A DNA stretch of 64,000 bases from positions 307,810 through 371,809 of the forward strand of contig DATKGN010000004.1 of NCBI GenBank assembly GCA_035510735.1. The letters run 5' to 3'. This DNA comes from Patescibacteria group bacterium. GTDB lineage: Bacteria > Patescibacteriota > Microgenomatia > UBA10105 > UBA927. Within the stretch, counting starts at the first letter, position 1. Each line of letters starts with the position of its first letter. The translations under genes were made by a program, and so were the position numbers. Shown piece after piece: positions 12,235 through 49,006 of the stretch. The notes under the pieces are model-generated. The model saw only the letters and a list, made by a program, of their open reading frames with translations. It ran no database searches and had not been told where the DNA came from.

Positions 12235-13152
12235 ATGAATGAAGTTCGTGTAGCAGAAGTTCCAGCTGCAGAAAGACATCTTGATATGCCGATTGAGGTG
12301 TATTTAATGAATGCTGCGACGAACGACGAACGAATAGTTATGGAAAATACATTCGCCTTCTGGCAGCCATTTAAGAATCCTTACACGGATGAGATAAAGG
12401 ATTCAGGATCAACAGTAGGATTGGAGAGTAGGGCCGGAGGTATGTGCGTGCATCTAATGGATGGGTATTTCGTTACCCCGAAACACGTGAGTGACGCGTA
12501 TTCTTTATCGGATGACTCTGAAGTAGAATTCAGAGATAGGATTCCAGATGTGATTTTTGATATTTATGGAACCAAACGGAATATCCAACCAGATTTAATA
12601 TTTTCTAATCCTCGATATGCATTGAGAACATTCGATGATTTCGTGATTTTTAGGGTTGATCCTATTAAATATCCGTGGATACAACAATTACCACGATACC
12701 CTATTATTTCGAATCACAAAGTTGCTGTGGGTCGTTCAATTTGCGTGGGAGTACCTGATCTTATATTTCCGTTGGGGTTTGATGAGAAAGGTGATCCATT
12801 AGTTGTTGATAACGTGGGACGTCAACTGACGGTTCGTTTGAAGGAAAACGACGTACCAATTTGGAAAAGAAAAGTTTCTATTGAAGAAGCACGTCTCCAT
12901 GCTCGAGCAGGAGAGGAGTATCCCTCTTGGTTTTTTGGTGTGCCAATGACAAGAGAAGCAAAAGGATATACAAAAGGACCCTTCATTAATAATGAGATGT
13001 TTATTAGTAAAGGATATAGCGGGGGACCTTTAATTCATAATGGTGTATTGCTTGGGATGGTTGTCGAACCTGATGTTGAATTTGGGAGCGGTGGGGGAGG
13101 ATATGCGGTTGATATTAAATTAGTGTTTAAGACGTTGCGCGGATTGATGTAG
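12235..13152 (+). CDS. Cytoplasmic trypsin-like (S1/chymotrypsin-fold) serine protease-like protein inserted between dnaK and dnaJ
   Basis: GYSGGPLIHNGVLLGMVV matches the GDSGGP catalytic-serine motif. TPKHV is His-box-like. DDFVIFRVD could supply the Asp. No signal peptide. Confidence 0.5.
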   Translation: MNEVRVAEVPAAERHLDMPIEVYLMNAATNDERIVMENTFAFWQPFKNPYTDEIKDSGSTVGLESRAGGMCVHLMDGYFVTPKHVSDAYSLSDDSEVEFRDRIPDVIFDIYGTKRNIQPDLIFSNPRYALRTFDDFVIFRVDPIKYPWIQQLPRYPIISNHKVAVGRSICVGVPDLIFPLGFDEKGDPLVVDNVGRQLTVRLKENDVPIWKRKVSIEEARLHARAGEEYPSWFFGVPMTREAKGYTKGPFINNEMFISKGYSGGPLIHNGVLLGMVVEPDVEFGSGGGGYAVDIKLVFKTLRGLM

Positions 13153-13166
13153 TATATTAATGTATT

Positions 13167-14093
13167 ATGGCAACGAAGAGAGATTTTTACGAGGTATTAG
13201 GAGTCAGTAAATCTGCGTCCGCCGATGAGATCAAGAAGGCGTACCGGAAGCTGGCTTTAGAGTGGCATCCCGACCGGAATAAAGCCGCAAACGCACACGA
13301 AAAATTCAAGGAAATAAACGAAGCCTACGAAGTGTTATCCGATCCCAAAAAGAAACAGACATTTGATCAGTTTGGCGCGAGCGCATTTGAACCCGGGATG
13401 GGCGGAGCGGGCGCGACAGCGGGTCAGGGACCGTTTGGCGGCGGAGGATTTCAGCAAGGGCCGTTTACGTATTATTACCAAACCAATGGCGGGGCCCAGC
13501 AGGGCAATCCGTTTGCAGGAGGCGGCGCCGAGGGATTTGATTTTTCCGATCCGTTTGATATTTTCGAACAATTTTTCGGCGGCGGGTTCGGCAGAGCCCA
13601 GACATCCCGCCGAGCGCATCCGGCATATGAAATCACCATTGATTTTATGGACGCCGTGAAGGGCGTTTCCAAAGAAGTTCACCTCCCAAAGGGCGCTGCA
13701 GGTGAGGGAAGCGTCAAAAAAACCATAAAAATTCCGGCAGGAGTCGACACGGGCTCGCGAATCCGGTTTGATGATTTTGATATTGTTGTTGAAGTCCGGC
13801 CGAGCCAGCAGTATCACCGCGAGGGCAATGACCTTGTCATCGAACAGGCCATCACGTTCACGCAGGCGGCCCTGGGCGCCGTCGTTGACGTGCCGACTAT
13901 TGACGGAACAGTGAAAATCCGCATCCAGCCCGGGACTCAGCCGGGCACATTAATCAGACTTCACGGTAAAGGCGTCCCATCGGTCCGCGGCGCAGACCGC
14001 GGCGACGAATACGTCAAAATCCAGCTTCAAATCCCGACGCACCTCAACCACAGGCAAAAAGAGCTATTGGAAGAGCTTGAGAAGGTATCTTAG
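13167..14093 (+). CDS. dnaJ: DnaJ-family co-chaperone, type II (J domain + G/F region + C-terminal domains; no zinc-finger CxxCxGxG repeats)
   Basis: [34 protein letters not shown] domain, a Gly/Phe-rich region and a CTD. The protein contains no cysteines at all. Confidence 0.9.
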
Positions 14094-14112: not shown

Positions 14113-14925
14113 ATGACTTCTGAAGATTTATTAGTAGAGGCACTTCCCCTTTATAGAATTTTACAATCTACAGAAATAGCTGAGCGGTACTTAACGCCAA
14201 CATTTGCAACACTGCATGAAATGGCGAATGAGGCCTCTTTTCGGAATCGGGAGTATGGATGCCAAGTCAGTAGGATTAGACCACCACAAGAGGATACTTC
14301 ATTCCTTTCGACGTATACTATCGGTGATACCCGTACTGTTTTTGAACCTGAACGTAAGCCTGAATCTGTTGACGGCGTGTTTTTTCATACCCATTTCCGA
14401 CATAATCCTAGTTTGATTGATTCCTTAAAAGGTAAAAAAATGAGATCTTGGTATATGTTACCGAGTGATCTTGGTGTGCCGAGATCAATGAAAGCTCTCG
14501 AAATTTCCTGTGATATGTATGCACAAAAAGGATCAAAACAATTAGGCGGGTATTTTAATATTGTCACACCATTTCACTGGGCACTGCATATTTGGCAGGA
14601 GCATCAGAGTGGAATTTCAGTACCGGATTCGCAGTGGGAAATTGTTGAGGGTACGCAAAAAGGCAGGATATTTACCTGGCAGGAATTACTCAGGGATACG
14701 AAGTCTAAACCGGATAATGTGATGGTTTGGAAGCATAATTGGCCCGGAGGGGTGCAAAATTATTTTTTAGTTAGAAGTTTTTTGTTAGCAGATCAACTGG
14801 AGAGAGAAATCGGATCAGTTAAGGGACTATGTTATGGTGATGGAGTAGTTGTCCTTATGGATCGATTGGGGCTTCAGCATATTCCACACGCACGAAACTT
14901 AAGTGAAATTACAAAACTGTCCTGA
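14113..14925 (+). CDS. Hypothetical protein (inserted cassette gene downstream of dnaJ)
   Basis: 270-aa ORF with no recognisable family. Flanked by the native dnaJ 3' end and a duplicated dnaJ 3'-end fragment. Confidence 0.6.
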   Translation: MTSEDLLVEALPLYRILQSTEIAERYLTPTFATLHEMANEASFRNREYGCQVSRIRPPQEDTSFLSTYTIGDTRTVFEPERKPESVDGVFFHTHFRHNPSLIDSLKGKKMRSWYMLPSDLGVPRSMKALEISCDMYAQKGSKQLGGYFNIVTPFHWALHIWQEHQSGISVPDSQWEIVEGTQKGRIFTWQELLRDTKSKPDNVMVWKHNWPGGVQNYFLVRSFLLADQLEREIGSVKGLCYGDGVVVLMDRLGLQHIPHARNLSEITKLS

Positions 14926-14934: not shown

Positions 14935-15012
14935 ATTGTCAAAAGCCAGCTTCAAATTCCGACACACCTCAATCACAGGCAAAAAGAATTACTTGAAGAA
15001 TTAGAGGTCTAA
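14935..15012 (+). repeat. Duplicated dnaJ 3'-end fragment ([25 protein letters not shown]-stop), a diverged copy of 14011-14093
   Basis: In-frame peptide nearly identical to the DnaJ C-terminus ([27 protein letters not shown]). The nucleotide differences are mostly synonymous, and an in-frame stop lies immediately upstream. Confidence 0.8.
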
Positions 15013-15999
15013 AACCCTGCCAATTCCAAGCTCGATGAGGGAGAGTGAATTAAGAAGAGTAGAAACGAATGTCGGATCATAAGAATTGAACGACGGGTCT
15101 GCATAGTATTTACGGCTTAATGCGTATACCTCTTCGATATTTACCACTGATTGCATCAATGAAGTATCAATTGTGCTATATCGGTGTTGGGCTAGTTCGC
15201 GATAGTACCGAAATTGTTGAGATACCCAATCGACGAGTATTTTCCTTTGTTCTTCAAAAGTTGCATGTACATGGTCTACAAAACTGCTCTGGTATTTTTG
15301 TTGTGCTTCAGATTCCCAATGACCCATTTCCCTTATCATGTCTCGTTCTTCTTGCCTGAAAACATCATTTAGTAGATTCGAGACCATAAAACTATAGTTC
15401 GGGTTATCAAGATAGCGGATGAGTTTGTTCGTGCTAATACCATGAAAAGTGAATGGAGCCACGGTGATATCATGTGTTGCGAATATCGGGACGGTATAGT
15501 GAATATGGGGAATAGGGCGTTGTTCCTCTGCTAACTGCATCAGGCGCATGGCTACAATTCCCGACGTAAAAAACTTATCACGACCTTCATCAATTGGAAA
15601 CGTATATTTGAGTGCAAATTCTTTTTTACCGTCGTTAGTGATTAAAAATATTGTGTACACTTTGCTTTCCATCCCTCCCAATGTATTGTTCCCCTGAATA
15701 ACGTGTCCGTCGTATATTTGAGAGAGTATTCCTGGATTGTTGGCTAAGAGATGTACGCCTTCCGGTGAAGCGATAAACGTAGCAGGAACCAAACCTGCAA
15801 GTGTTTGTTCATTGTGTTCTAACGAGGCGATTACAGTGTTTCCCATGAAATCATGAGAAACCATAACGCCGGGTAGTTCGGTGGGTTGCAGCCTGGTATC
15901 CAGGTATCGCTGTATAGCGTCTAGTGGTGGTTTATCAAATCTGGTTATATATTTAAGGCGTTCTGGCGGTCTATCCATAGATGGCGGCGATTGTATCAA
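15001..15999 (-). CDS. Hypothetical protein
   Basis: 332-aa ORF with no recognisable family. Its stop codon lies inside the duplicated dnaJ fragment. Confidence 0.55.
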   Translation of the reverse strand: MIQSPPSMDRPPERLKYITRFDKPPLDAIQRYLDTRLQPTELPGVMVSHDFMGNTVIASLEHNEQTLAGLVPATFIASPEGVHLLANNPGILSQIYDGHVIQGNNTLGGMESKVYTIFLITNDGKKEFALKYTFPIDEGRDKFFTSGIVAMRLMQLAEEQRPIPHIHYTVPIFATHDITVAPFTFHGISTNKLIRYLDNPNYSFMVSNLLNDVFRQEERDMIREMGHWESEAQQKYQSSFVDHVHATFEEQRKILVDWVSQQFRYYRELAQHRYSTIDTSLMQSVVNIEEVYALSRKYYADPSFNSYDPTFVSTLLNSLSLIELGIGRVLDL

Positions 16000-25001: not shown

Positions 25002-26108
25002 ATGTCAAAACTGTCCGATGATATTTCGATGCTTCGCAAAAAGACTGCCGAAGCCAAGCTTCCCCCGGATTTGGAATCACGACTCCTAAGCGATCTTGAA
25101 GAAATCAGCCGTTTGGAAAATGATATCGCCGCGCGCGTCCACATAGAACAGATGCTTCGGTATATTGATTGGGTTGTAAATTTGCCCTGGAACATACGTA
25201 CGGAAGATATTCTCGACATCAATAGGGCAAAAGAGTTTTTGGAAAAACATCATTACGGGCTCCAACCGGTGAAAGACAGAATTTTGGAATACCTTTCGGT
25301 CCTCAAACTTAACCGCGACCGGTGGAAAAAAGAAGAAGAAGCGGCAAAATCAGATAACGAGCTTAAGGATGCACGACTCTCCCACGCTATGTTAGCCCGA
25401 AGAGCTCCGATTCTTTGTCTTGTTGGACTGGTCGGAACCGGGAAAACGACGCTTGCCAAATCGATTGCCGAGGCCATGGGCAGGCGGTTTGTCCGTATAC
25501 CGTTCGGAGGGATGAGCGACGCGTTGGATCTTCGCGGACAATCACGCGTGCGGCCGGACGCTGAGATCGGATTGGTCCTGAAGGGTCTGCGGTACGCTGG
25601 AAGTAAAAATCCGGTCATCCTCCTTGATGAGATTGACCGTGTGGCAGAGCATGCGCGGGGCGACATCATGGGTGTGTTGGTTGAATTACTTGACCCGGAA
25701 CAAAACGCCGCATTTACCGATCATTTTATCGATTACCCGTTTGATCTGTCGGAAGCCATGTTTATCGCGACCGCCAACAACACGACGCATATCGCCACAG
25801 CCGTTCTTGACCGCTTGGAACCGATCCAGATGCCTTCTTATACCGATGAAGAGAAGATAACGATCGCAAAAAATTACGTCCTACCGGCACTTATGCGCGA
25901 GTCAGGGCTTACCGAAGATAATCTGAAAATCGATGATGCTATTTGGACAAAAATCGCGCGACCCCTAGGGTATGATGCGGGTATCCGGAGTCTTGAGCGG
26001 ACCATCAACACGCTCTGCCGCAAGGTGGCGCGGATGATCGTTGAAGGCAAAGCAACCCAGGTGACGGTCAATGAAGGAAATATTAAGGAATATATAGAAA
26101 GTTATTGA
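25002..26108 (+). CDS. Lon-like AAA+ ATPase lacking both the N-terminal LON domain and the C-terminal S16 protease domain
   Basis: HHYGLQPVKDRILEYLSV then Walker A GLVGTGKTTLAKSIA and Walker B VILLDEIDRV, typical of the Lon ATPase module. ORF ends 95 bp before rnj with no protease domain in any frame. Confidence 0.7.
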   Translation: MSKLSDDISMLRKKTAEAKLPPDLESRLLSDLEEISRLENDIAARVHIEQMLRYIDWVVNLPWNIRTEDILDINRAKEFLEKHHYGLQPVKDRILEYLSVLKLNRDRWKKEEEAAKSDNELKDARLSHAMLARRAPILCLVGLVGTGKTTLAKSIAEAMGRRFVRIPFGGMSDALDLRGQSRVRPDAEIGLVLKGLRYAGSKNPVILLDEIDRVAEHARGDIMGVLVELLDPEQNAAFTDHFIDYPFDLSEAMFIATANNTTHIATAVLDRLEPIQMPSYTDEEKITIAKNYVLPALMRESGLTEDNLKIDDAIWTKIARPLGYDAGIRSLERTINTLCRKVARMIVEGKATQVTVNEGNIKEYIESY

Positions 26109-26202: not shown

Positions 26203-27972
26203 ATGAGATTTAATCCATTTGCCAGACGGCAAAATCAGGTTTTTACCGGTTCTTCACAGAGCCGCCTGCCTACGCAGGCAGGGCGGACGATGCAGTCAGG
26301 CAAAGAATCAATACGCCTTATACCGCTTGGAGGCACCGGCAACGTGACAAAAAACATGTTCGTGTATGAATACCGCTATGACGGGAAGCTCAAGGATATT
26401 CTGATTGTCGACTGCGGCATCGGGTTTCCGGATCCTGAAATGTTCGGCGTCGACTTGGTGTTACCGGATGTGCGGTACCTCGAAAATAAACGGAATCTCA
26501 TTCGGGGACTAGTCTTCACTCACGGACATGATGATCATATCGGCGGGATTCCGCATCTCTATCCGAAATTAGGTAAAGTTCCCATGTGGGGGACGACGCT
26601 GACCGCCGCTTTCACCAACATTAAGCTCAAAGAACGGAATATAAAGAACAGAGTTACTCCTGTCGATTTTTCCCAGACACTTCGCATCGGACCGTTTACC
26701 GTTTCCTTCGTTCGCGTGACGCACTCCGTGCCCGATGCCGCCAATCTTATCATCCAAACCCCTATTGGCACCTTTTATCACGGCAGCGATTTTAAATTTG
26801 ATTTTCACCCATTAGACGGGAAACTATCGGAATTGTATAAAATTAACGAAGCGGGTCGAAAAGGTGTGCTTTGTTTGTTAACCGATTCATTGGGGAGTGA
26901 GCGCCCGGGATTTACGCCGTCGGAGCAGATTGTAGGAGTCACGCTTGATAAAGAGATAACGCTCTGCAGCGGCAAATGTATTTTTACGACACAGTCCAGT
27001 AACATTTCCCGTATCCAGCTTGCTATCGAAATAGCGCTTAAACACGGCCGGAAGATTGCCATTTTTGGCCGGAGTATGGATCATAATATTGAAGAAGCGG
27101 TTAACTTGGGATACATGCGGTTTCCGAGGGAATCGATTATTCTTGACCGGGATTTGAAGCGTGTGCCGCCGACCAAACAGTTCCTTATTGTTGCGGGAGC
27201 TCAAGGCCAGGAAGGCTCTGCATTGTGGCGGATTGCCAACGATGATCATAAATTTGTAAGTATTGATGACGGTGATACGGTCGTATTTTCGGCGGACCCG
27301 ATCCCAGGAAGTGAAAACAATGTCAACGCGGTTATTGAACAGCTATACCGGAAGGGTGCGCGCGTTGCGTATTCGGACATCATGGAAGATCTTCATGTCT
27401 CGGGTCACGGAAGCCAGGGAGACCTTATGCTCATGCTCTCCGCAATCGGCCCCAAATACATTTTCCCGATGGGAGGCACCTACCGGCACATTATGCAGTA
27501 CCGGCGGCTTGCGATGGATCTCGGATATAATAAGCGCGATATTTTAACTCCCGAAGAGGGGCAGGTATTGGAATTCAAAAGAGATGCGCCGCCGCGGGTT
27601 GTCGAAACCATTAATTTGGAAAACGTCATGATTGACGGCTTGGGGATCGGCGATGTCGGGGACGTCGTCCTCCGGGACCGGCAGACGATCGCAACCGAAG
27701 GAATTGTTGTCGTTGTCGTACCGATTGAAAAGTCGAGCGGACGCGTGACTGCTGAACCCGATATTATCTCGCGCGGATTTGTCTATATTAAAGAATCCGG
27801 TGACTTGCTCAATAAAGCGAAACGGGTGGTGAATGAGTCCCTGCGGCTTAAAAAAGGCAGGATGGTTGACTGGCATTTTTTCCGGAAAAACGTCGAAGAA
27901 AACCTCGGGAGATTTCTCCTTAAGGAGACCGGCCGCACGCCACTCATAGTTCCTGTGATCGTGGAAGTATAA
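26203..27972 (+). CDS. rnj: Ribonuclease J (metallo-beta-lactamase/beta-CASP)
   Basis: IRLIPLGGTGNVTKNM, HTHGHDDHIGG and HVSGH motifs. The true start may be the internal ATG at 26290. Confidence 0.9.
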   Translation: MRFNPFARRQNQVFTGSSQSRLPTQAGRTMQSGKESIRLIPLGGTGNVTKNMFVYEYRYDGKLKDILIVDCGIGFPDPEMFGVDLVLPDVRYLENKRNLIRGLVFTHGHDDHIGGIPHLYPKLGKVPMWGTTLTAAFTNIKLKERNIKNRVTPVDFSQTLRIGPFTVSFVRVTHSVPDAANLIIQTPIGTFYHGSDFKFDFHPLDGKLSELYKINEAGRKGVLCLLTDSLGSERPGFTPSEQIVGVTLDKEITLCSGKCIFTTQSSNISRIQLAIEIALKHGRKIAIFGRSMDHNIEEAVNLGYMRFPRESIILDRDLKRVPPTKQFLIVAGAQGQEGSALWRIANDDHKFVSIDDGDTVVFSADPIPGSENNVNAVIEQLYRKGARVAYSDIMEDLHVSGHGSQGDLMLMLSAIGPKYIFPMGGTYRHIMQYRRLAMDLGYNKRDILTPEEGQVLEFKRDAPPRVVETINLENVMIDGLGIGDVGDVVLRDRQTIATEGIVVVVVPIEKSSGRVTAEPDIISRGFVYIKESGDLLNKAKRVVNESLRLKKGRMVDWHFFRKNVEENLGRFLLKETGRTPLIVPVIVEV

Positions 27973-28507
27973 TTGTATTTTCTGCCTCATCGGGAACTGC
28001 TCCACAATAAGGGTTGATAAGCATCCGATAAAGCAGTTCCCACTGTTGTTGTGACGGCTCCTGGCGCCTAACGTCAAAATCGCTATCAGGCATGTTCTGA
28101 AAATTGTTGAATGTTACACTGCTTTCTATATAAGGATCTCCGGGAGTTATTTTTATATTCAGCGAATACCCCGAAAATAAAATGCTTGTGGGATAATTGA
28201 AAAACAGATCGACAGAAGCCGCTTGCGGACTTATGTTGGTGTTCACTGATGGGCGGACGTTGACGCTGTCCGGATGCTTATAAGGAAACGGTAAAAGGTT
28301 GCGTGGTCCCCGATGAAACCAGATAAGTTTATCCACTCCCTGCCTTATAGGCTCGTCGATGTCGACAGCAAAATAAATACCCATGTCAGCCCCGTAGGTG
28401 CCGTCAGGTTGCAGTTTGCAGAGCTTGTCGACGAATCGATGAATTTTTTCCTGTATCGCAATATCTGCTTCTGGAGTTTTGGATTGATCAAGCTCCGCAA
28501 TGTTCAT
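27944..28507 (-). CDS. Hypothetical protein (cassette gene 1 at the rnj/typA junction)
   Basis: 187-aa ORF with no recognisable family. Its 3' end overlaps the last codons of rnj. Confidence 0.5.
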   Translation of the reverse strand: MNIAELDQSKTPEADIAIQEKIHRFVDKLCKLQPDGTYGADMGIYFAVDIDEPIRQGVDKLIWFHRGPRNLLPFPYKHPDSVNVRPSVNTNISPQAASVDLFFNYPTSILFSGYSLNIKITPGDPYIESSVTFNNFQNMPDSDFDVRRQEPSQQQWELLYRMLINPYCGAVPDEAENTIILPRSQEL

Positions 28508-28595
28508 ACAAGAGAATTACACTGCTTTGGGGCTTTATTGTCAACTATTTGATCGTGAGAACGTTTAATTTTCCGTCCGTTTGGCGGACTGCTCG

Positions 28596-28628
28596 CCGCT
28601 TATTGTCCCAGTAATCGTGGAAGTATAA
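28596..28628 (+). repeat. Duplicated rnj 3'-end fragment (PLIVPVIVEV-stop)
   Basis: 25/30 nt identical to 27943-27972. All 5 differences are synonymous third positions. Peptide identical to the RNase J C-terminus. Confidence 0.75.
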
Positions 28629-28645
28629 AGGATCCTACTTTGTTA

Positions 28646-29005
28646 TTATGGTGTAGTTGTAATGGTCGGACTAGGTGTTAGATACGCCCTGTTGGATTGC
28701 GGCATATAAACACTCTTTGCATTTTGTCGTTCGATTTGTTGATTTTTGATATCTTTTAGATAACTGGGCGGAGTAGGTTTTCTTTTAGGAGTCGAACTAG
28801 GGCTAGGGTTAGGCGTTACGCTTGTCAGACATTTTCCGTTACGACATGCGAAATTCGCGTTTCGCGACCTTGCAAATGACGTCAAACTGAAGTTTCCGTA
28901 CACAGTTGCCACGGCCAGAAGGATAAGAACGCCGAGTGTAACGACAGTGACCGCAAGAAGCTTGGCCTGCTTATGTGCTTTGCTATCAGCTGTTGATTTT
29001 ATCAT
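28646..29005 (-). CDS. Small membrane-anchored Pro/Thr-rich hypothetical protein (cassette gene 2)
   Basis: 119 aa with an N-terminal TM helix. Confidence 0.45.
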   Translation of the reverse strand: MIKSTADSKAHKQAKLLAVTVVTLGVLILLAVATVYGNFSLTSFARSRNANFACRNGKCLTSVTPNPSPSSTPKRKPTPPSYLKDIKNQQIERQNAKSVYMPQSNRAYLTPSPTITTTP

Positions 29006-29069
29006 ATAGATTTACTGTAAAGTGGGAAATAGTGCATGTCAAGAATGACGCGCCTGTAGCGTGAGGTAG

Positions 29070-29111
29070 TTAACAAATTTATTGAAAAATTAGTTATCCT
29101 TCCGTTGCGCC
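29070..29111 (-). repeat. Duplicated typA 3'-end fragment (MRIDRVRAQRKDN-stop on minus strand)
   Basis: Compare the native TypA C-terminus AKIDRVRAQRTNN-stop at 30127-30168. The nucleotide core GCGGTCGATT is shared. Confidence 0.65.
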
Positions 29112-29162
29112 CGTACGCGGTCGATTCTCATGGAGCGTTTCGTGGAATTCGGCTGCATGCTG

Positions 29163-29192
29163 TTTATGGTGCCGGTGATTGTGGAAGTCTAG
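29163..29192 (+). repeat. Third copy of rnj 3'-end fragment (FMVPVIVEV-stop)
   Basis: VPVIVEV-stop is identical to the RNase J terminus. It lies head-to-head with the typA fragment. Confidence 0.6.
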
Positions 29193-29255
29193 TTTAGACT
29201 GTCAATGTAATCTAAAATTGATTTTTTACCCCGGAAGTTGTAGGATCGATCAGCT

Positions 29256-30107
29256 ATGAGCATGGATGAATTTATTGATCAACGGATAGCAGCGCACGCC
29301 GCAGCGGCAGCTTCTCGAAAATCTGCAGTTGTGGAACCGCAAAATACACCCCCAAAACTAGAGGATTGGATGATAAAAGGAGCTCAAAAGTTTGATGATT
29401 ATTTAACCTCTGTTAATAATGTTCTTGAGCGATCTCAGATCGAGCCAATTATAAGAGGAATTTTTGATTATGCGGCTCGCCATAACGTGTATAGAGATCG
29501 GGAGATTAATTTTTATACTGAAGTAATGGTAACTTCCCGAGCGACGATCTCTGAGTTGGTAAATAAAGTTATATATAACGAAGGATTACCACAGCCTCGC
29601 ATAGAAAAAAAATATTCTCTACCACTTTACGGCGGGCAAGTTATTAGTCCAGCAAAACTAACTATTCACACGATCGAAGAAGCATTTCAAAGTGCTTACT
29701 TACTTGTTCAACTAAGTGAGCAAAAATCCAGTTATCATTCACCAATAGAAATGATAAAAACACAGTATATTCGCAAATCACAATCTAGTGATTATTATGA
29801 ACATGCATATCCGCCGGATTATTGGCTCGCTTCTGTATCCTGGACTTATTGGGGAACGAAAGGAGGATATCTTCCTGGTGATGGGAGTCGTCATCAGGGT
29901 GGTGGTAGTTCATATTATTACGAAGCGGAAGTGGAAGAAGGGTTTACGGTCTTTGTGAAGCCGACTGGCATGGGTATATTGGGGTCCCCAACGGAGAATT
30001 GCGAGAAAATCAGGTCTTCCCCAATATTAATTGGTGAGGCGGGAATTGATAATGTAACTTTAATTAAACAACGACTAACGGACGCATATCTAGGCCAACT
30101 CAAATAA
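29256..30107 (+). CDS. Hypothetical protein (cassette gene 3)
   Basis: 283-aa ORF with no recognisable family. Confidence 0.55.
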   Translation: MSMDEFIDQRIAAHAAAAASRKSAVVEPQNTPPKLEDWMIKGAQKFDDYLTSVNNVLERSQIEPIIRGIFDYAARHNVYRDREINFYTEVMVTSRATISELVNKVIYNEGLPQPRIEKKYSLPLYGGQVISPAKLTIHTIEEAFQSAYLLVQLSEQKSSYHSPIEMIKTQYIRKSQSSDYYEHAYPPDYWLASVSWTYWGTKGGYLPGDGSRHQGGGSSYYYEAEVEEGFTVFVKPTGMGILGSPTENCEKIRSSPILIGEAGIDNVTLIKQRLTDAYLGQLK

Positions 30108-30126
30108 AAGATTTGTAGAAATCTTT

Positions 30127-32010
30127 TTAATTATTTGTTCTTTGTGCCCGAACGCGGTCGATTTTCGCGAGGTGTTTTTTTCGGAGACGGAGATTCTTGG
30201 GCGTCACTTCCAATAGTTCATCATCCTCAATGAAATCCAGACATTGTTCAAGCGACAGAACCGTCGGCGGATCGAGTTGAATGGCGATATCGGCATTGGC
30301 TGAGTGAATGTTCGTCAATTTCTTAGTTTTACAAACGTTGATATCGATATCATTTTGCTTCGGATTGATTCCGATGATCATCCCTTCATATACCGGCACT
30401 CCGGGTCCGATAAACGCCTTGCCGCGGTCCTGGACGGTCGTGAGGGCATATGCAGAAGAGACGCCGGTTTCCCATGAGATAAGGACGCCATTCCTGAGTT
30501 TCGGTATGTGCGGCGTAAGCGGGAAATACCCGATGAACCGGGTGGCAAATATTCCTTTCCCTCGGGTTTTGGTCATGATATCGGTTCTGAATCCCAATAA
30601 ATTGCGGCTACTTACTTTGTAGACCATGCGCGTGATGTTCCGCTCATCAGTGTGGGTGTCAAGGAGCTCTGCGCGGCGTTTCCCGAGCTCCTCGGTGATG
30701 ATGCCGACCATATTCGTATCGATTTCTATCGTTATTTCCTCAAATGGTTCGCTCTTAACGCCGTCAATATCCTTCAAAATTACCTCTGGTTTACTGACCT
30801 GTAGTTCATAGTCCTCGCGCCTGAGATTTTCGATGAGTACCGCAAGATGAAGTTCTCCCCGGCCGCACACGATAAATCCCTGACCTGACGGATTTTCATC
30901 GATTTTGAGACCAATGTTCGTTTGTTTTTCCTTAAGGAGTCGTTGATGGATTTGGCGGGCATTACAGAATTTGCCGTCCCGGCCGGAGAGAGGTGAGGTA
31001 TTGGCGGCGACTAAAATTTTCAGCGTTGGTTCCTCAAGCTTGATCATCGGGTACCCAATCGGGTCGGCAGGATCGGCAATCGTGTGGCCGATACCGACAT
31101 CCGGAATGCCTGTGAGGGCGATAATGTCTCCGGGTTCGCTTTTGGCGACTTCCACACGGTGAAGTCCAACGCTGGTAAATACGCCCTCGACTTTACATTG
31201 CCCGAGTTTTTCATTCTCAAGAAGGTGCACGATTGATTGGCCGGGTGAAATCATCCCCTGGGTCACTTTTCCGATCGCAAATGTTCCCTTATAATTATCG
31301 AAATCAAGTGTAGAAACAAGCATTTTAAACGGCTTTTCGGCATCCATTTTCGGAGGAGGAATCTGCTCAATAATCGTTTTAAAAAGAGGCGTTAAGTCAC
31401 CTGCAAGGTTCATATTATTCGGATACGATTCCCACGCTTTGCCTTCACGTCCGATTGCATAGAGAACAGGAAAATTGAGATGGTGTTCGTGCTTCGCCAA
31501 TCGTAAAAAAAGCTCTTCGGTTTCTCTGAGGACTTCCGTAGCACGGGCGTCCTTGCGGTCAATTTTGTTAATGACCACGATTACCTTAAGATTGTATTCA
31601 AGTGCTTTTTGAAGAACGAACTGAGTCTGGGGAAGCGGGCCTTCGGCGGCGTCCACGATGAGAAGCACTCCGTCAGCCATATTGATCGTCCGTTCAACCT
31701 CGCCGCTGAAGTCGGAGTGACCTGGGGTGTCGATAATATTAATTTTTGTATCGTTATAGCGGACTGCGGTGTTTTTTGCGAGGATGGTGATCCCTTTTTC
31801 GCGCTCGAGGTCGTTACTGTCGAGAATCGTCGTTTGGGTCATTTCAGCCTCATTTTCGCGGAATGTATGGGTCTGTTTGAGCATCCCGTCAACGAGGGTT
31901 GTTTTTCCATGATCTACATGGGCGATGATTGCAATATTCCGTATATCCATATCAAAAAATAAATCCCTCCGCCCGCGTTCGATCCTGCCGCGATGAGTGG
32001 AGGGTGTCAA
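30127..32010 (-). CDS. typA: Ribosome-associated GTPase TypA/BipA
   Basis: IRNIAIIAHVDHGKTTLVD G-domain followed by EF-G-like domains. 627 aa. Confidence 0.93.
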   Translation of the reverse strand: MTPSTHRGRIERGRRDLFFDMDIRNIAIIAHVDHGKTTLVDGMLKQTHTFRENEAEMTQTTILDSNDLEREKGITILAKNTAVRYNDTKINIIDTPGHSDFSGEVERTINMADGVLLIVDAAEGPLPQTQFVLQKALEYNLKVIVVINKIDRKDARATEVLRETEELFLRLAKHEHHLNFPVLYAIGREGKAWESYPNNMNLAGDLTPLFKTIIEQIPPPKMDAEKPFKMLVSTLDFDNYKGTFAIGKVTQGMISPGQSIVHLLENEKLGQCKVEGVFTSVGLHRVEVAKSEPGDIIALTGIPDVGIGHTIADPADPIGYPMIKLEEPTLKILVAANTSPLSGRDGKFCNARQIHQRLLKEKQTNIGLKIDENPSGQGFIVCGRGELHLAVLIENLRREDYELQVSKPEVILKDIDGVKSEPFEEITIEIDTNMVGIITEELGKRRAELLDTHTDERNITRMVYKVSSRNLLGFRTDIMTKTRGKGIFATRFIGYFPLTPHIPKLRNGVLISWETGVSSAYALTTVQDRGKAFIGPGVPVYEGMIIGINPKQNDIDINVCKTKKLTNIHSANADIAIQLDPPTVLSLEQCLDFIEDDELLEVTPKNLRLRKKHLAKIDRVRAQRTNN

Positions 32011-39141: not shown

Positions 39142-41517
39142 ATGAATATCGTTAATTCACTTACATCACTTTTTCATTCGAAAAAAGACGGAACGAACGC
39201 GTATGTATCGCTGTATCTCGATTCCCACGTTGTCGGCGCTTCGTTTTGGTCATTTGATCCAAACGGAGAAGTCCACATATTAGCATCAGAGAATGAGGAG
39301 TTTAACGAAGATTCGTGGAAAGTGCGGGCCGATGCGATTGACCGGCTTTTGGGGACGCTTGAGGAGCGGACCAAACTGATGGATGTAACGAAAGTTATTT
39401 TGGGACTTCCGAATATCTATCTCACGGACTCGGGCGAGATTCAAAAAGAGATCCGGCTGGAGATTAAACAGCTCATGGAATTACTGGACCTGCAGGCGAT
39501 GGGATTTGTACCGATTCATCAGGCGCTTATGTTCCGTATGAAAAAAGAAGAGGGGGTTCCACCGAGTGTTATATTACTCGGTATACAGAGTGATTCCATC
39601 GCAATATTAATATACAAAATCGGTGCACAAGCAGGTCTTCGTGAAGTGAAGAAACAGCAGGATGTAGCGGCGTGTGTCGAAGACGGTCTCGCAAGTTTCA
39701 CCGATGTCGAGGTGTTGCCGGCGCGTATTGTGCTTCACGGTTCAGATCCCGGTGAACTTGAAGAAATAAAGAACCAGCTTCTCCGTCACACGTGGACCCC
39801 TAAAATAAATTTTTTACATTTTCCCAAAATTGAAATTGCATCGTCACAACTCATCGTTGATGCGGTTTCTCTCGCTGGCGCGAGTGAGCTTGGGAATGTC
39901 GTGGCGCTTGGGGATAAGGAAAATACCGCACAAGAATCGGTTGAACAAAACCAGGATGAAACCAAAACACCGGTTCCCGAACAGAGTGCGGAGTATGCCG
40001 TAGACACAAAAGGCGAGGAAGAAACGGGAGAACCCGGTGAAACCCAGATGGCTGTTGCCGACGGAACAGTTAACACGGATGTCGACGAAGAGAAGGTAGA
40101 TGAGGAGGTTGCTGTTGCACAAAAAGATGTAGCGGAAGATTTTGCCGTCGATGAGACAACAACCGCGGATGCAAACGTCGTGATGGTTGACGCAGAATCG
40201 TTGGGATTTAAACCGGACGTTGACGTCCTCGAGGAGAAACAGCAAATGCGACACGATTCTGCCATTCCGGCTGCGATTGATGAAGAAGAGGAAGTGGGCA
40301 CACATCAACTGTTACCGAAACTGCCGCATGTGGATTTTTCCGGAGTTTTTGCAGGTTTGGGTGGTTTGAATTTAGGATCGGGTGGCGGAAGGACGAAGTT
40401 ACTCGCAGTCGCAGGAGGTGTTATCCTGTTACTTGTTATTGCACTACTATTCTGGACTTTACCTCACGCAACTATCCTTATCCGCGAAATACCAAAGCCC
40501 GTCGATGCATCAGATACCATTACTATCGATCCGAGCGCGACAACAGTTGATGCGCAGAATAAAATAATTCCCGGTAAAAAAGAAGAGCAGTCAGTGAGTG
40601 GAGAGAAAACCATTCCGGTTAACGGAAAAAAGAATATCGGTGATCCTGCAAAAGGGGTGGTGACTATTTACAATAAGTCGCTCGACGAGCTGACGCTCAA
40701 AAAAGGAGTAATCCTATCGACCGGCGGATTACAGTTCACCCTGGACGCTGACAGCGATATTGCCTCTGCCAGTGAAAATATCGGATCTTTAACATTCGGA
40801 AAAACAACAGCAAATGTTACGGCAGTGGTAATCGGGACTCAAGGTAATCTTCCTGCGGGAAATGACTTTACCATCGCAGATACGTCGACCAGTGTCGCGC
40901 AGGCGCATAATGATGAGTCCTTCGCCGGAGGGACGAGTAAGCAGATTACGGTTGTTGCCAAATCCGATTATGATGCGCTCGTTAAGGCGGAATCGGCTGA
41001 CCTTGTGGGTCAGGCGCAACAGCAATTGTCCGCATCTATCGGCGGAAACGAAAAACTTATAGACGGCACGGTCACTACGAATGTTACGCAAAAAACATTC
41101 AATCAGCAGATCGATCAGCAGGCCACCCAACTTACAGGCAAACTTACAATTACTGTAAGTGGCATTGCGTATAATGAAGCCGATATTCAGGCGTATCTGA
41201 CGAGCGGACTTGGAGATAAAGTACCCAGCGGTTATGTCATAGATGAACATAAAACTGGTATAACGGTGAGCGACGTCGTGGTGAAAAAAAATGGAACCAT
41301 CACTGCGAAAGTTGCGATGCATGCTGTTGCGCTCCCCACCATAGATACGGCGGCGGTAAAAAATGCAGTAGCGGGCAAAAGTCTCACGAGCGCACAGGCG
41401 TATGTTCATACGCTTACCGGAGTTGCAGCTCTTGAAGTGCAATTCCGTTTGAGCCCGACTAAGCAGTGGCTTCCCTTAAATAAAAATAATATTACCGTTT
41501 CTCTCGCTATTCAATAA
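39142..41517 (+). CDS. Large bitopic membrane protein: cytoplasmic N-domain (possible actin-like/FtsA-PilM-like fold), acidic linker, TM, ~340-aa extracytoplasmic domain
   Basis: 791 aa with a TM helix near residue 425. N-terminal YVSLYLDSHVVGASFW weakly resembles phosphate-1 motifs of FtsA/PilM-type ATPases (low confidence). Translationally adjacent to the sortase gene. Confidence 0.5.
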   Translation: MNIVNSLTSLFHSKKDGTNAYVSLYLDSHVVGASFWSFDPNGEVHILASENEEFNEDSWKVRADAIDRLLGTLEERTKLMDVTKVILGLPNIYLTDSGEIQKEIRLEIKQLMELLDLQAMGFVPIHQALMFRMKKEEGVPPSVILLGIQSDSIAILIYKIGAQAGLREVKKQQDVAACVEDGLASFTDVEVLPARIVLHGSDPGELEEIKNQLLRHTWTPKINFLHFPKIEIASSQLIVDAVSLAGASELGNVVALGDKENTAQESVEQNQDETKTPVPEQSAEYAVDTKGEEETGEPGETQMAVADGTVNTDVDEEKVDEEVAVAQKDVAEDFAVDETTTADANVVMVDAESLGFKPDVDVLEEKQQMRHDSAIPAAIDEEEEVGTHQLLPKLPHVDFSGVFAGLGGLNLGSGGGRTKLLAVAGGVILLLVIALLFWTLPHATILIREIPKPVDASDTITIDPSATTVDAQNKIIPGKKEEQSVSGEKTIPVNGKKNIGDPAKGVVTIYNKSLDELTLKKGVILSTGGLQFTLDADSDIASASENIGSLTFGKTTANVTAVVIGTQGNLPAGNDFTIADTSTSVAQAHNDESFAGGTSKQITVVAKSDYDALVKAESADLVGQAQQQLSASIGGNEKLIDGTVTTNVTQKTFNQQIDQQATQLTGKLTITVSGIAYNEADIQAYLTSGLGDKVPSGYVIDEHKTGITVSDVVVKKNGTITAKVAMHAVALPTIDTAAVKNAVAGKSLTSAQAYVHTLTGVAALEVQFRLSPTKQWLPLNKNNITVSLAIQ

Positions 41518-41520
41518 GAT

Positions 41521-42261
41521 ATGGCTCTGTATCGCTATGTTAAGGCTCCGCCTGTTAGACGGCGTGTGCACAAAAAACCAATGTGGTTGTCGTTTGTTTT
41601 CATGGGGCTCGGGGGAGCAATACTTCTCTGGGTTCTCTGGCCAATTGTTTCTTTCTCGTTGGTAGGGGATCAATTGTTTTCAAAAACCATAACCCCGGTG
41701 AATGATGCCTCCGACATGGTCAGGACGACCTCGCTTTCGACGGTAGCGTATGCCGCGGGGACTGACGGGTTTAATTCAGGCACCGATATATCCGTGAATG
41801 CAAACACATGGTATCCGACCGTGCCGCAGAAACATGTGACGTCACAGGTAAATACGTACACACTTTCCATTCCGAAACTGAAGATCAATAATGCGCTCGT
41901 AACCATCGGCGGGGATAATCTGGATGAGAGCTTGGTCCATTACGGTGGCACGGGAGTACCCGGCCAATACGGAACCGCGGTCGTGTTCGGCCACTCGAAT
42001 CTCCCACAATTTTATTCACCGACGGATTATAAAACGATATTTTCAATGTTGCCCACGCTTAAAATCGGCGACGATATAGTGGTGACGTATGACGGCGTCA
42101 CCTACAAATATGTCGTCTACGATATGGTCGTTCTCGACCCTACCGATTTATCAACCCTGGAGCAGCAGTTCGATGATTCATACTTAACACTCGTCACTTG
42201 TGTTCCTCCGGGAACACTTTGGAAACGGCTTGATGTAAAGGCAAAATTATCAACAATCTAA
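41521..42261 (+). CDS. Sortase family transpeptidase
   Basis: N-terminal TM anchor, VVFGHSN (catalytic His) and LTLVTCVPPG (TLxTC catalytic Cys) motifs. Confidence 0.75.
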   Translation: MALYRYVKAPPVRRRVHKKPMWLSFVFMGLGGAILLWVLWPIVSFSLVGDQLFSKTITPVNDASDMVRTTSLSTVAYAAGTDGFNSGTDISVNANTWYPTVPQKHVTSQVNTYTLSIPKLKINNALVTIGGDNLDESLVHYGGTGVPGQYGTAVVFGHSNLPQFYSPTDYKTIFSMLPTLKIGDDIVVTYDGVTYKYVVYDMVVLDPTDLSTLEQQFDDSYLTLVTCVPPGTLWKRLDVKAKLSTI

Positions 42262-45474: not shown

Positions 45475-45559
45475 GAAAAATAAATTCTATCTCCGAGGTA
45501 GAAGAGTTGCGGTGCACGAAGCCAATATTTCGAAATATTTTCAATAAAATCCTTTTCAT

Positions 45560-45645
45560 ACATTTTTCTTTCTCTTTTCCTTGTTATACTCTAGCCCTCT
45601 GAAGCGGGGGATTTTTGGGGCAATTTGCGTTCCGATTTCATCCCA
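45560..45645 (+). repeat. ~80-bp intergenic repeat, copy 1 (complete)
   Basis: ACATTTTTCTTTCTCTTTTCCTTGTTATACTCTAGCCcTCTGAAGCGGGGGATTTTTGGGGCAATTTGCGTTCCgATTTC. Confidence 0.85.
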
Positions 45646-45682
45646 GGTATTAAGTTATACACTTCGAACTTATTTAGAGCGA

Positions 45683-46033
45683 TTAAGCTTGTGCTTGGGG
45701 CGGCGGAAAAATGGGCTTCCATTCCTGTTTAATAGATTCGGAAAGTGTGGCGGCATATTGATCAATTCGTGGTAAATCCCAGGTTTCTCTTTGATTAAGT
45801 GGAATGTATTTCATTTGATCTTCTGGTCGTGTAGCATTCAATTGGTCACCAAGATCAATACCAACCACATGTTTTGGTAAGCCTTTCCAAATCAATGCCG
45901 CTAATCTTTGCTTCATCTCATTCTGCGTAGCATGGGAATATTCTTTAGAAGAAGATTCGGCAATACTCGTTAGTACTTGTTGGAAAAGCATAATTGACTT
46001 TCGAACCTCTACAACACTCGTCAATTCTGTCAT
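45683..46033 (-). CDS. Hypothetical protein
   Basis: 116-aa ORF between repeat copies 1 and 2. Confidence 0.45.
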   Translation of the reverse strand: MTELTSVVEVRKSIMLFQQVLTSIAESSSKEYSHATQNEMKQRLAALIWKGLPKHVVGIDLGDQLNATRPEDQMKYIPLNQRETWDLPRIDQYAATLSESIKQEWKPIFPPPQAQA

Positions 46034-46146
46034 AGTTAAATACTATAACACAGTTTGATGAGTTACAATGTCATAATAGATTTCAAACTGTTATATGGTT
46101 AAACTTAAACATCTTCTGCCAGGTGTACTAATAAATGTATTCCTTT

Positions 46147-46230
46147 CTCTTTTCCTTGTTATACTCTAGCCATCTGAAGCGGGGATTTTTGGGGCAAGTT
46201 GCGTTCCAATTTCGTCCGGACCAGTGTGAT
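46147..46230 (+). repeat. ~80-bp intergenic repeat, copy 2 (complete)
   Basis: ~90% identical to copy 1 over ~80 bp. Confidence 0.85.
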
Positions 46231-46317
46231 TAATTTATCCTATAATATTGACACACTTTCCCCCTGACTGTATAATCCCATTCAATACTCATTCTTGCCG
46301 TAGATTAAATTACGCAT

Positions 46318-47010
46318 ATGCATGCCGAAATGTTACGGGACCCTTCATTTGAAATTAAGTTACCTACCGTTGGGGAGTCCTTAGGGAACAGAACAGCCAC
46401 TTTGATTTTAGATGAAGAAGGGCGATGGTGTGATATCCCTTGTGTGAGTGATACGTCAACGTTACTCAACTTGGTGAATGGCTACTTTAAACCACGAATT
46501 GGAGCGGAAATTCAGCGGCTCGAGCAACTTAGGATGATAGTAAATAATTCATCCGAAGTAGATAAAAAAATCGTCTTGGGAGTAGGATTGTTCTATTATG
46601 AACCGCCTGATTCGGGAATGATTGAAGAAGAGGAATGGCGAGGGGCAGTAGTTCAATTGATGCGGTCAGCAGGTGTGCCAGCCGAAAATATTCCATCTCA
46701 TTTAGCTCCGTCGATAAATCCTTTGGAACGCAATTTCTTTGACTCTGAAGTCGACCCTTTGGATTATAAGGAAGTGCCCGATTTAATGGTGAAAACGTTT
46801 ATACTTTGCGCGGCTCTTAGTCGTTTCGCGCCCAATCGTCTTTCAGGAGAGAGTTTGGCGATAGGGTATAAAGCGGCAATAGCAATTGATGGAGCTGCAC
46901 TTCTTGGTCTTCTAAAAGACGAGATCCACGAAGACGAAGATCATCCTGAGCATTCACGAGTATTCACGAAGACAGTTCATAACGTTGTTAAGGGACTACT
47001 TGAGCAGTAG
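46318..47010 (+). CDS. Hypothetical protein
   Basis: 230-aa ORF between repeat copies 2 and 3. Confidence 0.5.
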   Translation: MHAEMLRDPSFEIKLPTVGESLGNRTATLILDEEGRWCDIPCVSDTSTLLNLVNGYFKPRIGAEIQRLEQLRMIVNNSSEVDKKIVLGVGLFYYEPPDSGMIEEEEWRGAVVQLMRSAGVPAENIPSHLAPSINPLERNFFDSEVDPLDYKEVPDLMVKTFILCAALSRFAPNRLSGESLAIGYKAAIAIDGAALLGLLKDEIHEDEDHPEHSRVFTKTVHNVVKGLLEQ

Positions 47011-47026
47011 TGGCGGCACAGAGTAA

Positions 47027-47079
47027 TACATTTTTCTTTCTCTTTCCCTTGTCGGACTCTAGCCATCTGAAGCGGGGGA
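47027..47079 (+). repeat. Intergenic repeat, copy 3 (5' half ending in core CATCTGAAGCGGGGGA)
   Basis: Matches the 5' ~50 bp of copies 1 and 2, then diverges abruptly into promoter-like TTGACG sequence. Confidence 0.8.
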
Positions 47080-47117
47080 TAATGTTGACGTGTGGATTTG
47101 ACTTGTATGTGAGTTAG

Positions 47118-47597: not shown

Positions 47598-47605
47598 TTG
47601 ATAAT

Positions 47606-47660
47606 AGTCATCTGAAGCGGGGAATTTTGGGGCAATTTGCGTTCCAATTTCGTCCCGACG
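47606..47660 (+). repeat. Intergenic repeat, copy 4 (3' half beginning with core TCATCTGAAGCGGGGAA)
   Basis: Matches the 3' ~50 bp of copies 1 and 2. Shares the ~15-bp core with copy 3. Confidence 0.8.
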
Positions 47661-47675
47661 GGTGCCCATTATATA

Positions 47676-48935: not shown

Positions 48936-49006
48936 ACTATAGGATTATATGTAACGAATTTACGGGGGTATTTTTATTTCTATTCACCTTGTTGTACTAT
49001 AACCAG

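Follow-up and report, generated by a model that had tools for sequence, protein, structure and literature searches.

Introduction

Bacteria of the candidate phyla radiation (CPR) have genomes of about 1 Mb with almost no classical mobile elements. No routine genetics is available for them, and their gain of accessory genes is largely inferred. Here we analyse a stretch of 64,000 nucleotides (nt) of CPR/Patescibacteria DNA (GenBank assembly GCA_035510735.1, contig DATKGN010000004.1, positions 307,810 to 371,809), which is called the window throughout. Its source is Candidatus Gottesmanbacteria, a groundwater bacterium with a very small genome, and its close RNase J relatives are all metagenome-assembled genomes of that group. 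In the window, the junction between the convergent genes rnj (RNase J) and typA (BipA) holds an array of three small gene cassettes, separated by diverged copies of the 3' ends of these two genes. The displaced gene ends are called relics below.

The closest published pattern is the insertion with long target duplication (Nobusato et al. 2000, as presented by Furuta et al. 2010, Nucleic Acids Res 38:2428, PMC2853133). In that presentation, restriction-modification genes without mobility genes are flanked by direct repeats of 46–423 bp, mostly in naturally competent bacteria. In some of these cases a repeat overlaps the 3' end of a gene; no mechanism is settled on there. As for mechanism, the best analogue of the present locus would be homology-facilitated illegitimate recombination in natural transformation, described for Acinetobacter, Pseudomonas stutzeri and Streptococcus pneumoniae (PMC3240628). 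As described there, one side is anchored by homology and the other joint is illegitimate, and neither site specificity nor a dedicated recombinase is needed.

Integrative elements that enter gene 3' ends and bring a substitute end are exemplified by phage 21 and e14 in icd and by ICESt1/ICESt3, together with their integrase-less derivatives, the cis-mobilizable elements (CIMEs), at fda. In the tycheposon islands of Prochlorococcus and the integration relics of Sulfolobus, cargo arrays are flanked by partial tRNA genes. In the minimal mobile elements of Neisseria and in replacement-type flexible islands, small cassettes are swapped between conserved flanks by transformation and homologous recombination. 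A Vibrio cholerae island in recA (PMC4405046) may serve for comparison.

Results and Discussion

Layout of the rnj–typA junction

The window was compared with about 160 loci of relatives, namely a first set of 80 related loci (L001–L080) and a second set of 80 metagenomic loci from an RNase J scan. A repeat search of the junction recovered three copies of the rnj end and two copies of the typA end, each 73% identical to the reference copy. The features are the following (aa, amino acids; GC3, GC content at third codon positions).

26203–27972, plus strand: rnj (RNase J), Pfam RNase_J_b_CASP and RNase_J_C, 95% aa identity to the rnj of L001
27930–27972 (repeat 27930–27974), plus strand: working (proximal) 3' end of rnj, last ~33–45 nt, repeat copy 1 by repeat search
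27944–28507, minus strand: cassette c1, 187-aa ORFan, convergent with rnj, last nine codons overlapping the rnj end
28586–28630, plus strand: rnj' relic, copy 2, peptide SPLIVPVIVEV and stop, collinear with the native rnj end of L001
28646–29005, minus strand: cassette c2, 119-aa predicted membrane protein, L001 ortholog directly beside rnj
29090–29140, minus strand: typA' relic, ending in RIDRVRAQRKDN and stop, apparently the 3' end of another typA allele, truncated on its inner side
29141–29149, no strand: typA'/rnj'' joint between the back-to-back relics
29150–29194, plus strand: rnj'' relic, copy 3, peptide GCMLFMVPVIVEV and stop
29256–30107, plus strand: cassette c3, 283-aa ORFan, convergent with typA, GC3 0.30
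30127–30177, minus strand: working 3' end of typA, last ~50 nt, repeat copy by repeat search
30127–32010, minus strand: typA/BipA, full set of BipA domains, convergent with rnj

The three rnj ends encode PLIVPVIVEV, PLIVPVIVEV and FMVPVIVEV and the two typA ends encode KIDRVRAQRTNN and RIDRVRAQRKDN, each followed by a stop codon. Repeat search and translation bear out all the end peptides given in an initial annotation of this DNA, and the three cassette genes that it placed between the copies are all present, with those coordinates and strands, in the list of open reading frames (ORFs). Its typA copy exists with the peptide that it gave; the position of 29070–29111 was wrong. The peptide part lies 20 nt higher, at 29090–29131, and homology extends to 29140 in a local alignment of 29090–29140 with 30127–30177.

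Cassette c1 and the proximal rnj end overlap by 29 nt. The c2 stop lies 18 nt past rnj', and c2 has its own promoter-like site (29014–29042, minus strand), described as just inside typA'. The overlap of c1 and the spacing and promoter of c2 point to co-evolved units whose source genomes had those genes as convergent neighbours. GC3 is 0.30–0.44 in the cassettes and 0.46–0.58 in core genes (0.44 for c1 against 0.55 for rnj), as expected of accessory DNA. No match in Pfam, NCBIfam or PADLOC was found for c1, c2 or c3, nor for a fourth cassette, c270, at the dnaJ junction described below. Among 5.8 billion proteins nothing but c1 itself resembled c1, and the search with c3 returned one distant homolog. 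AlphaFold2 models of c1 and c3 have a mean pLDDT of 32–33, too low for a fold search. The ORF of c3 is retained at 41–44% identity in a related locus, L089, so that c3 can be taken as a real gene.

A hairpin at 30153–30169 with a T-run (to 30179), CGCGGTCGATTTTCGCG AGGTGTTTTT, is terminator-like for plus-strand transcripts and lies antisense within the final 50 nt of typA. On the minus strand, a similar terminator-like site is found inside the rnj end at 27894–27907. The block that is conserved best in the typA' relic corresponds to the left half of the typA-end hairpin. The convergent genes appear to terminate within each other's coding ends in this compact genome.

Specificity of the gene-end copies

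The peptide LIVPVIVEV followed by a stop was searched in six frames of 1.46 Mb of related DNA (BLOSUM score of at least 22). Only native rnj ends and copies 0.65–1.3 kb downstream of rnj were recovered, with two copies in the window and one each in L021 and L024; the sole exception was a borderline match with a score of 23 (maximum 40). Peptides resembling IDRVRAQR were confined, in 2.2 Mb, to native typA ends and to the additional typA-end copies of the window and L014. The gene-end repeats are thereby confirmed beyond the background of 1.46–2.2 Mb. Matches to LLTPVIVEP in the metagenomic loci were rejected as an internal FtsK motif. Among 968 long ORFs, strong downstream copies of the last 90 nt of a gene occurred only at the rnj, typA and dnaJ junctions, and matched internal segments used as a control gave 0 downstream copies.

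The array was also followed through contigs from eight independent samples and assemblers. Cassette c1 lies beside rnj in 8/8, the full order typA–c3–c2–c1–rnj is spanned by five (the remaining three are shorter), and both typA-end copies are present in all five contigs that reach typA. Mis-assembly is excluded. The strain occurs in samples SRR8695230, SRR8676594, SRR8693975, SRR8676592 and ERZ27248486.

The junction downstream of rnj is an insertion hotspot

Measured from stop to stop, the rnj–typA gap in the first 80 loci amounts to −4 to +41 nt in 11 cases, the empty sites, and to 527–3605 nt in 12. Many genomes have no typA at this place, and ftsK then follows rnj within 1–140 nt. Adjacency to typA changes at least seven times on the RNase J tree. 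The occupied gaps carry a Gp49/HTH toxin-antitoxin pair, an AAA/DUF4143 ATPase, PAS, PNPOx and Peptidase_S51 proteins, a Wzy-like protein, a HAD-like protein (by N-terminal sequence only), many ORFans and, in three genomes, an IS200-like Y1 transposase. The metagenomic loci, none above 84% identity, show the same variability of the junction; no new rnj-end copies were found in these 80. The junction downstream of rnj is an insertion hotspot that has been used in multiple events. Repeated insertion had been proposed in the initial annotation, which suggested a comparison with related genomes for empty sites or different cassettes; both occur, and the arrangement is not uniform.

The comparison with L001 (RNase J identity 95%, ~88% nucleotide identity to the window) resolves part of the order of events. 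In L001, rnj is followed after 12 nt by a c2 ortholog (L001:11776–12216; 50% aa identity to c2, with indels), a decayed typA'/rnj'' remnant and the start of a c3-like gene. Both c1 and one rnj copy are missing, and both flanks align. In the alignment, copy 2 of the window falls on the native rnj end of L001, and all that lies to its right falls on the DNA downstream of that end. Thus c1 and one rnj end represent a separate insertion, or they were lost in L001 by repeat recombination. Judged from this alignment, rnj' is probably the displaced older rnj end, and the typA'/rnj'' joint is older than the split between the window and L001. In L089 the c3 homolog stands beside typA and is preceded by an rnj-end relic (MPVIVEV and stop), with a different cassette upstream. 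The unit of rnj relic, c3 and typA thus occurs behind another cassette, which supports the unit structure of the array. Insertions with a relic of one of the two genes are found at three further loci.

Downstream of rnj, L021: ATPase cassette, relic of 84 nt
Downstream of rnj, L024: toxin-antitoxin cassette, relic of 95 nt
Downstream of typA, L014: IS200-like element, typA relic of ~84 nt

The gene typA itself shows a presence/absence polymorphism downstream of rnj. Either this 1.9-kb housekeeping gene acts as a cassette at the junction, or lineages frequently exchange the region.

The IS200-like element lies directly past the typA stop in L014 (L014:12269–13094), and related elements occupy the same rnj–typA gap in two other loci (L048:11784–12563 and L067:1144–1864). 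The elements contain a Y1_Tnp gene of 227–241 aa and subterminal hairpins GGGTGAYCCCTTAAAGG. The L014 element is flanked by typA and by the 84-nt typA relic of another allele; to our knowledge, elements of this family do not generate a duplication of that kind by themselves. An origin of the window cassettes as non-autonomous IS200/IS605 derivatives was rejected, with both Y1_Tnp and the GGGTGAYCCCTTAAAGG hairpin absent from the window.

The same signature at the dnaJ–nusA junction

A second junction of the window carries the same signature.

13167–14093, plus strand: dnaJ
14113–14925, plus strand: cassette c270, a 270-aa ORFan
14938–15012, plus strand: dnaJ' relic

The relic is 75 nt long with its own stop, and the stop of a convergent ORF (15001–15999) overlaps it. 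The gap between dnaJ and nusA is 62–273 nt in about 32 of 44 loci (below 130 nt in about 25) and 0.87–3.7 kb in 12. Among these 12 loci with a long gap, four have a dnaJ-end relic beyond the cassette.

Window: c270 (14113–14925), dnaJ-end relic at 14938–15012
L001: c270 ortholog, dnaJ-end relic
L015: HEPN/MNT-like pair (by sequence), dnaJ-end relic
L068: weakly HD-like protein, dnaJ-end relic

A donor for the c270 event would carry a dnaJ allele ending in "...LSRRQRELLEEFEKSL" beside c270. Upstream of dnaJ, a 305-aa AT-rich ORFan (12235–13152, GC3 0.33) lies between dnaK and dnaJ, with no family match and no detectable relic. It is probably another inserted accessory gene, in this case within the chaperone operon.

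Nature and boundaries of the relics

The differences between the copies are not those of a decaying duplicate. Relative to the native rnj end, copy 2 carries six synonymous third-codon changes and a difference at one boundary codon, in agreement with the initial annotation, which had noted purely synonymous differences: five fall in the last 30 nt and six in 33 nt overall, all at third positions. The last nine codons of copy 3 show only third-position differences except at two boundary codons (L to F, I to M), and the copy is decayed further upstream. When six pairs of native end and copy are pooled, codon position 3 accounts for 35 of the 50 nucleotide differences. This exceeds one third (p=1e-7) and also the 45% expected from duplication followed by decay (p=3e-4), in which the working copy gains only synonymous changes while the relic drifts. 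The excess places the copies far from the neutral decay of an identical duplicate.

Affinities to other lineages lead in the same direction. Copy 2 is identical to the native rnj end of L001 at 30/33 nt and to the window's own end at 27/33. Copy 3 matches the native ends of L012 (29/33) and L009 (28/33) better than the window's own end (23/33). The earlier view that the copies resemble the ends of other functional alleles, and are no decaying duplicates of the resident end, is upheld by the position-3 excess and by these affinities. Between the rnj genes of the window and L001, mismatches cluster at 27924–27954 (8 in 31 nt against a background of 11.7%).

The dnaJ ends extend this range. In L001 the distal dnaJ' is the ortholog of the working dnaJ end of the window (6 differences in 63 nt), and the working end is a strongly divergent allele from −66 on (24 differences in 69 nt, six amino-acid changes). 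The two dnaJ ends of L001 share just 9 nt. The dnaJ copies of L068 have 66 identical nt, followed by a last stretch of 33 nt at ~61% identity. In L024 and in L021 the two copies are nearly identical to each other (90/95 and 82/95) and equally far from relatives (~72–81/95). By these alignments, the relics range from same-allele duplicates to foreign or mosaic alleles, and homologous recombination with other alleles was evidently involved. Between the dnaJ' relics of the window and of L001 there are seven synonymous and two non-synonymous differences. The rnj'' relic decayed independently in L001, where a decayed ortholog of typA' is also present. Selection on relic peptides was rejected: rnj'' is decayed at all codon positions in both lineages, and allele swapping is simpler.

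The relics are 36–99 nt long (36–45 for the c1 event of the window, 84 in L021, 95 in L024, 75–99 for the dnaJ events and ~84 for typA in L014), and the inserts measure 0.56–1.3 kb. Distal copies end at the stop codon or within ~9 nt after it. The start points vary: ~−36/−45, −43 or more, −84 and −95 for rnj; −75/−81, −88 and −99 for dnaJ; ~−50 and −84 for typA. Only the typA'/rnj'' joint has two recognisable partners. At the place that matches this joint, both native genes have GGAGAC (30183–30188 and 27924–27929). The joint itself, now decayed to GGAATT, may have formed by microhomology.

A function of the relics as promoters or terminators was rejected, as no consistent role was found and promoter-like sites lie downstream of the relics; the hairpin within the typA end was the sole element of note. 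This is the case for the site of c3 downstream of rnj'' (read by eye, not among the promoter-scan matches) and for the ftsK site downstream of the L024 relic.

Searches for a recombinase

No recombinase, integrase or mobility gene was found among the ORFs of the window, as the initial annotation had stated. Two tyrosine-recombinase motif searches over all loci (2.2 Mb), a crude test, returned nothing credible, and the motif search of the 80 metagenomic loci gave no recombinase. Pfam detected no integrase or resolvase in the 20 of 67 gap ORFs that were scanned, the largest included. A repeat search revealed no shared core or inverted repeat bounding the cassettes. Targeting of the tRNA type was rejected, since the window contains no tRNA or tmRNA gene and no Rfam family.

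Comparison with described systems

The locus shows all the structural features of insertion with long target duplication, the type of cargo excepted. The inserts are short (below 20 kb) and absent from related genomes with aligning flanks, such as L001 without c1 and the empty rnj/typA, rnj/ftsK and dnaJ/nusA junctions. The direct repeats exceed 30 bp, are single-copy at the empty site and coincide with gene 3' ends as some of the published ones do. Their lengths are 36–99 nt, compared with 46–423 bp in the published cases. No transposase or integrase was found with the inserts, with the exception of L014, where the insert is itself an IS200-like element. The differences concern cargo and context. 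Restriction-modification genes are carried there, whereas the cargo here consists of ORFans, toxin-antitoxin pairs (Gp49/HTH and, by sequence, HEPN/MNT-like), an AAA ATPase, an IS200-like element and a weakly HD-like protein. Without exception the repeats here are formed by gene 3' ends, and they are confined to two or three fixed junctions. In many cases the two copies represent different alleles or mosaics. Events are stacked into an array that retains relics from both flanking genes, and the bacterium belongs to the CPR. The array is an example of a known insertion pattern, and what is new is the uncultured phylum and the non-restriction cargo.

Homology-facilitated illegitimate recombination would explain the mosaic working ends and the variable joints. 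It is known from laboratory selections and not from natural scars, whereas in our case it is deduced from sequence only. Integrative elements at gene 3' ends resemble the present cassettes in that the incoming replacement end is mostly synonymously different, the resident end is displaced, and tandem accretion leads to arrays. A substitute end with a displaced resident end is seen at dnaJ in L001, in L068 (as a mosaic) and in copy 2 of the window, collinear with the native end of L001. However, a site-specific recombinase with a fixed core is encoded by those elements or by the elements from which they descend; here none was found, the boundaries vary and the units are single genes. The tycheposon and Sulfolobus arrays share with ours that successive insertions at the same site leave partial target-gene copies between blocks of cargo. 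They differ in using tRNA targets and tyrosine recombinases, whereas the targets here are protein-gene ends and no recombinase was found. The minimal mobile elements of Neisseria likewise hold alternative small cassettes between a fixed pair of conserved genes, but they replace cassettes without gene-end relics, while here cassettes were added and scars remain. Integrons require IntI, attI and attC. The window cassettes match them in no feature: no IntI and no shared inverted repeat (attC) were found, the orientation is mixed, and the cassettes have their own promoter-like sites.

Origin of the array

The segments rnj'–c2–typA' and rnj''–c3–typA each have the anatomy of a complete single-cassette junction as in relatives, so the array is best read as three junction versions in series. 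With about even confidence, we favour the view that alternative single-cassette versions of the junction were added to each other by one-sided homologous plus illegitimate recombination. The junction past rnj would be a permissive operon boundary in a very compact genome, present in the population in versions that are empty or hold one small accessory gene. The array would then be a concatenate of three versions, (rnj–c1...), (rnj–c2–typA) and (rnj–c3–typA). The incoming DNA would derive from related Gottesmanbacteria, probably via transformation. A single homologous, presumably RecA-type, crossover in a flanking housekeeping gene would anchor it, and the other end would be joined illegitimately a few tens of bases inside the 3' end of the resident gene. 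A two-sided exchange would swap the cassettes without trace, whereas the one-sided event would add the incoming cassette. The tail of the incoming allele would complete the housekeeping gene, and the resident tail would be stranded past the cassette as a relic of 36–99 nt. Only relics short and diverged enough to escape repeat-mediated deletion would persist. Natural transformation of Gottesmanbacteria may be supposed by analogy: competence is shown for Saccharibacteria, another CPR lineage (PMC10187176), genes for PilN and PilO lie in the window, and gene exchange is reported to be frequent among Patescibacteria (PMC12455944).

Of the two mechanisms considered in the initial annotation, homology-guided cassette capture is therefore the one that the evidence favours. 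Site-specific integration at a fixed attB is not supported: the start points vary, three genes are used, and neither an integrase in about 160 loci nor a shared core or inverted repeat was found.

Several points weigh against one-sided addition. Donor haplotypes (rnj–c1–typA, and rnj–c3–typA without relics) were not found among the related loci, and the concatenation was reconstructed, not observed. In laboratory studies, the usual product of homology-facilitated illegitimate recombination is a deletion of resident DNA and not a duplication. The microhomology concerns one decayed joint, compared with present-day native sequences and not with the true partners. Relic starts cluster within ~100 nt of the stop and, for the same gene, within 10–25 nt, and a site-specific enzyme would also give such clustering. 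Finally, most occupied sites carry no relic (for example L006–L008, L036, L037, L048, L051, L054, L067 and L069). The scars are thus not an obligatory product; they are an occasional by-product or are quickly lost.

If one-sided addition is correct, the relics are a natural record of the entry of small genes into CPR genomes. The genes would come from related lineages and would enter where an operon boundary is permissive, which is the case at a few places (rnj–typA/ftsK and dnaJ–nusA). Entry would apparently depend on host recombination instead of integrases. Gene tails with synonymous-only differences would be a marker that can be scanned for in any metagenome-assembled genome, and they could serve to date or count additive insertions. 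Long target duplication, a pattern associated until now with restriction-modification genes, would then also cover ordinary cargo, and this within an uncultured phylum.

Foremost among the alternatives, though unlikely, is a duplication in place from inside the rnj end to inside the typA end, followed by allelic turnover. The duplication would stem from an illegitimate or unequal exchange in a single lineage, and the other repeats from exchanges of a similar kind. Later homologous recombination with alleles of the population would have replaced cassettes and working ends and created the synonymous differences. The back-to-back typA'/rnj'' relics are exactly the joint that a tandem duplication produces. 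The initial annotation had taken their orientation as an argument against tandem duplication, which does not hold; additive insertion of a second segment from rnj end to typA end gives the same joint. The L024 and L021 copies, nearer each other than to relatives, behave as true target duplications would, and transformation-driven formation of merodiploids is documented in pneumococcus (PMC3784515). On the other side, the two halves share no cassette similarity, and the overlap of c1 with the proximal rnj end is that of a co-evolved unit. The window relics have intact rnj-like frames with 5–6 synonymous differences, which is incompatible with neutral decay at equal age, and the window would need several extra replacement steps.

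Next, and doubtful in our view, is an origin as integrase-less satellite cassettes, on which an unseen tyrosine or serine recombinase, encoded outside the window, would act in trans at att sites that lie in the rnj, typA and dnaJ 3' ends. A replacement gene end would come with every element, in the manner of phages and integrative elements aimed at tRNA or protein-gene 3' ends, and tandem accretion would build the array. The topology is indeed like that of attL and attR (direct repeats, an end supplied by the element, a displaced resident end), the relic starts fall within 10–25 nt for each gene (dnaJ −75/−81, −88, −99; rnj −84, −95), and the same junctions were struck repeatedly in different genomes. 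The 66-nt identity block of L068 with its diverged tail also resembles a core plus a substitute end. However, neither the 64-kb window nor the cassettes of the ~160 loci and their surroundings yielded an integrase, by motif search and by Pfam on 20 of 67 gap ORFs. Three target genes would need several specificities, and the boundaries are not constant and have no detected common core or inverted repeats. The typA'/rnj'' joint has no place in an att model, and the cargo amounts to 0.35–1.1 kb per gene in mixed orientation. A dedicated cassette-capture system in Gottesmanbacteria, and perhaps in other CPR bacteria, is more speculative still and improbable: a recombinase in trans would use the terminal ~40–100 nt of housekeeping genes as attachment sites for single-gene cassettes that bring substitute ends. 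A recombinase acting in trans, if real, would mean a new kind of cassette platform, integron-like without attC or a linked integrase.

A third rather unlikely explanation, ranking after the satellite cassettes, is that junction segments circularised: a cassette with one or both of its flanking gene ends would be looped out, by recombination of the repeats or at microhomology, taken up by a different cell and integrated by a Campbell-style single crossover in the gene end, which would be duplicated. Such circles explain the direct repeats ending at the stop codon and the typA'/rnj'' joint as the circle junction, and a crossover within the 66 identical nt would fit L068. A similar "virus-like cycle" was proposed for repeat-flanked restriction-modification units (PMC2853133). 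The window relics, on the contrary, offer only 36–45 nt of homology at 73–82% identity, with a longest perfect run of 15 nt. A RecA-type crossover would need far more homology than this. The 9 nt shared by the two L001 dnaJ ends are likewise against it.

Chance resemblance or an assembly artefact, which the short length (33–51 nt) and just 73% nucleotide identity of the repeats might suggest, is practically dismissed by the confinement of the peptides with their stops to these positions in six frames of 1.5–2.2 Mb, by the orthologous relics in L001 and L089, and by the array or its c1–rnj part in contigs of eight independent samples, five of them covering the whole array.

Other features of the window

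A further stacked locus was found at 45558–49108. It contains five copies of a unit of 55–95 nt, of which four are mutually 85–91% identical and one is ~69% identical. The unit holds a promoter-like TTGTTATACT, and its last copy also includes the start codon region of a YgjP-like gene (~49004–49576). The copies separate four ORFs, namely three ORFans and a sigma-70-like gene (47676–48935, minus strand). The locus looks like a mirror image of the junctions above, with duplications of gene starts, not gene ends, between stacked cassettes.

Genes for PilO and PilN are located at the start of the window (33–1257); they belong to type IV pilus machinery and are relevant to DNA uptake. A Lon-like AAA+ ATPase of 368 aa is encoded at 25002–26108, with a Lon lid domain and no protease domain match. 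The region 39142–42261 encodes a 791-aa protein with a Baseplate_J-like stretch, beside a sortase gene. A PD-(D/E)XK nuclease gene (57115–57984) adjoins a NACHT/STAND NTPase gene (58101–59759), a pairing that is reminiscent of defence systems.

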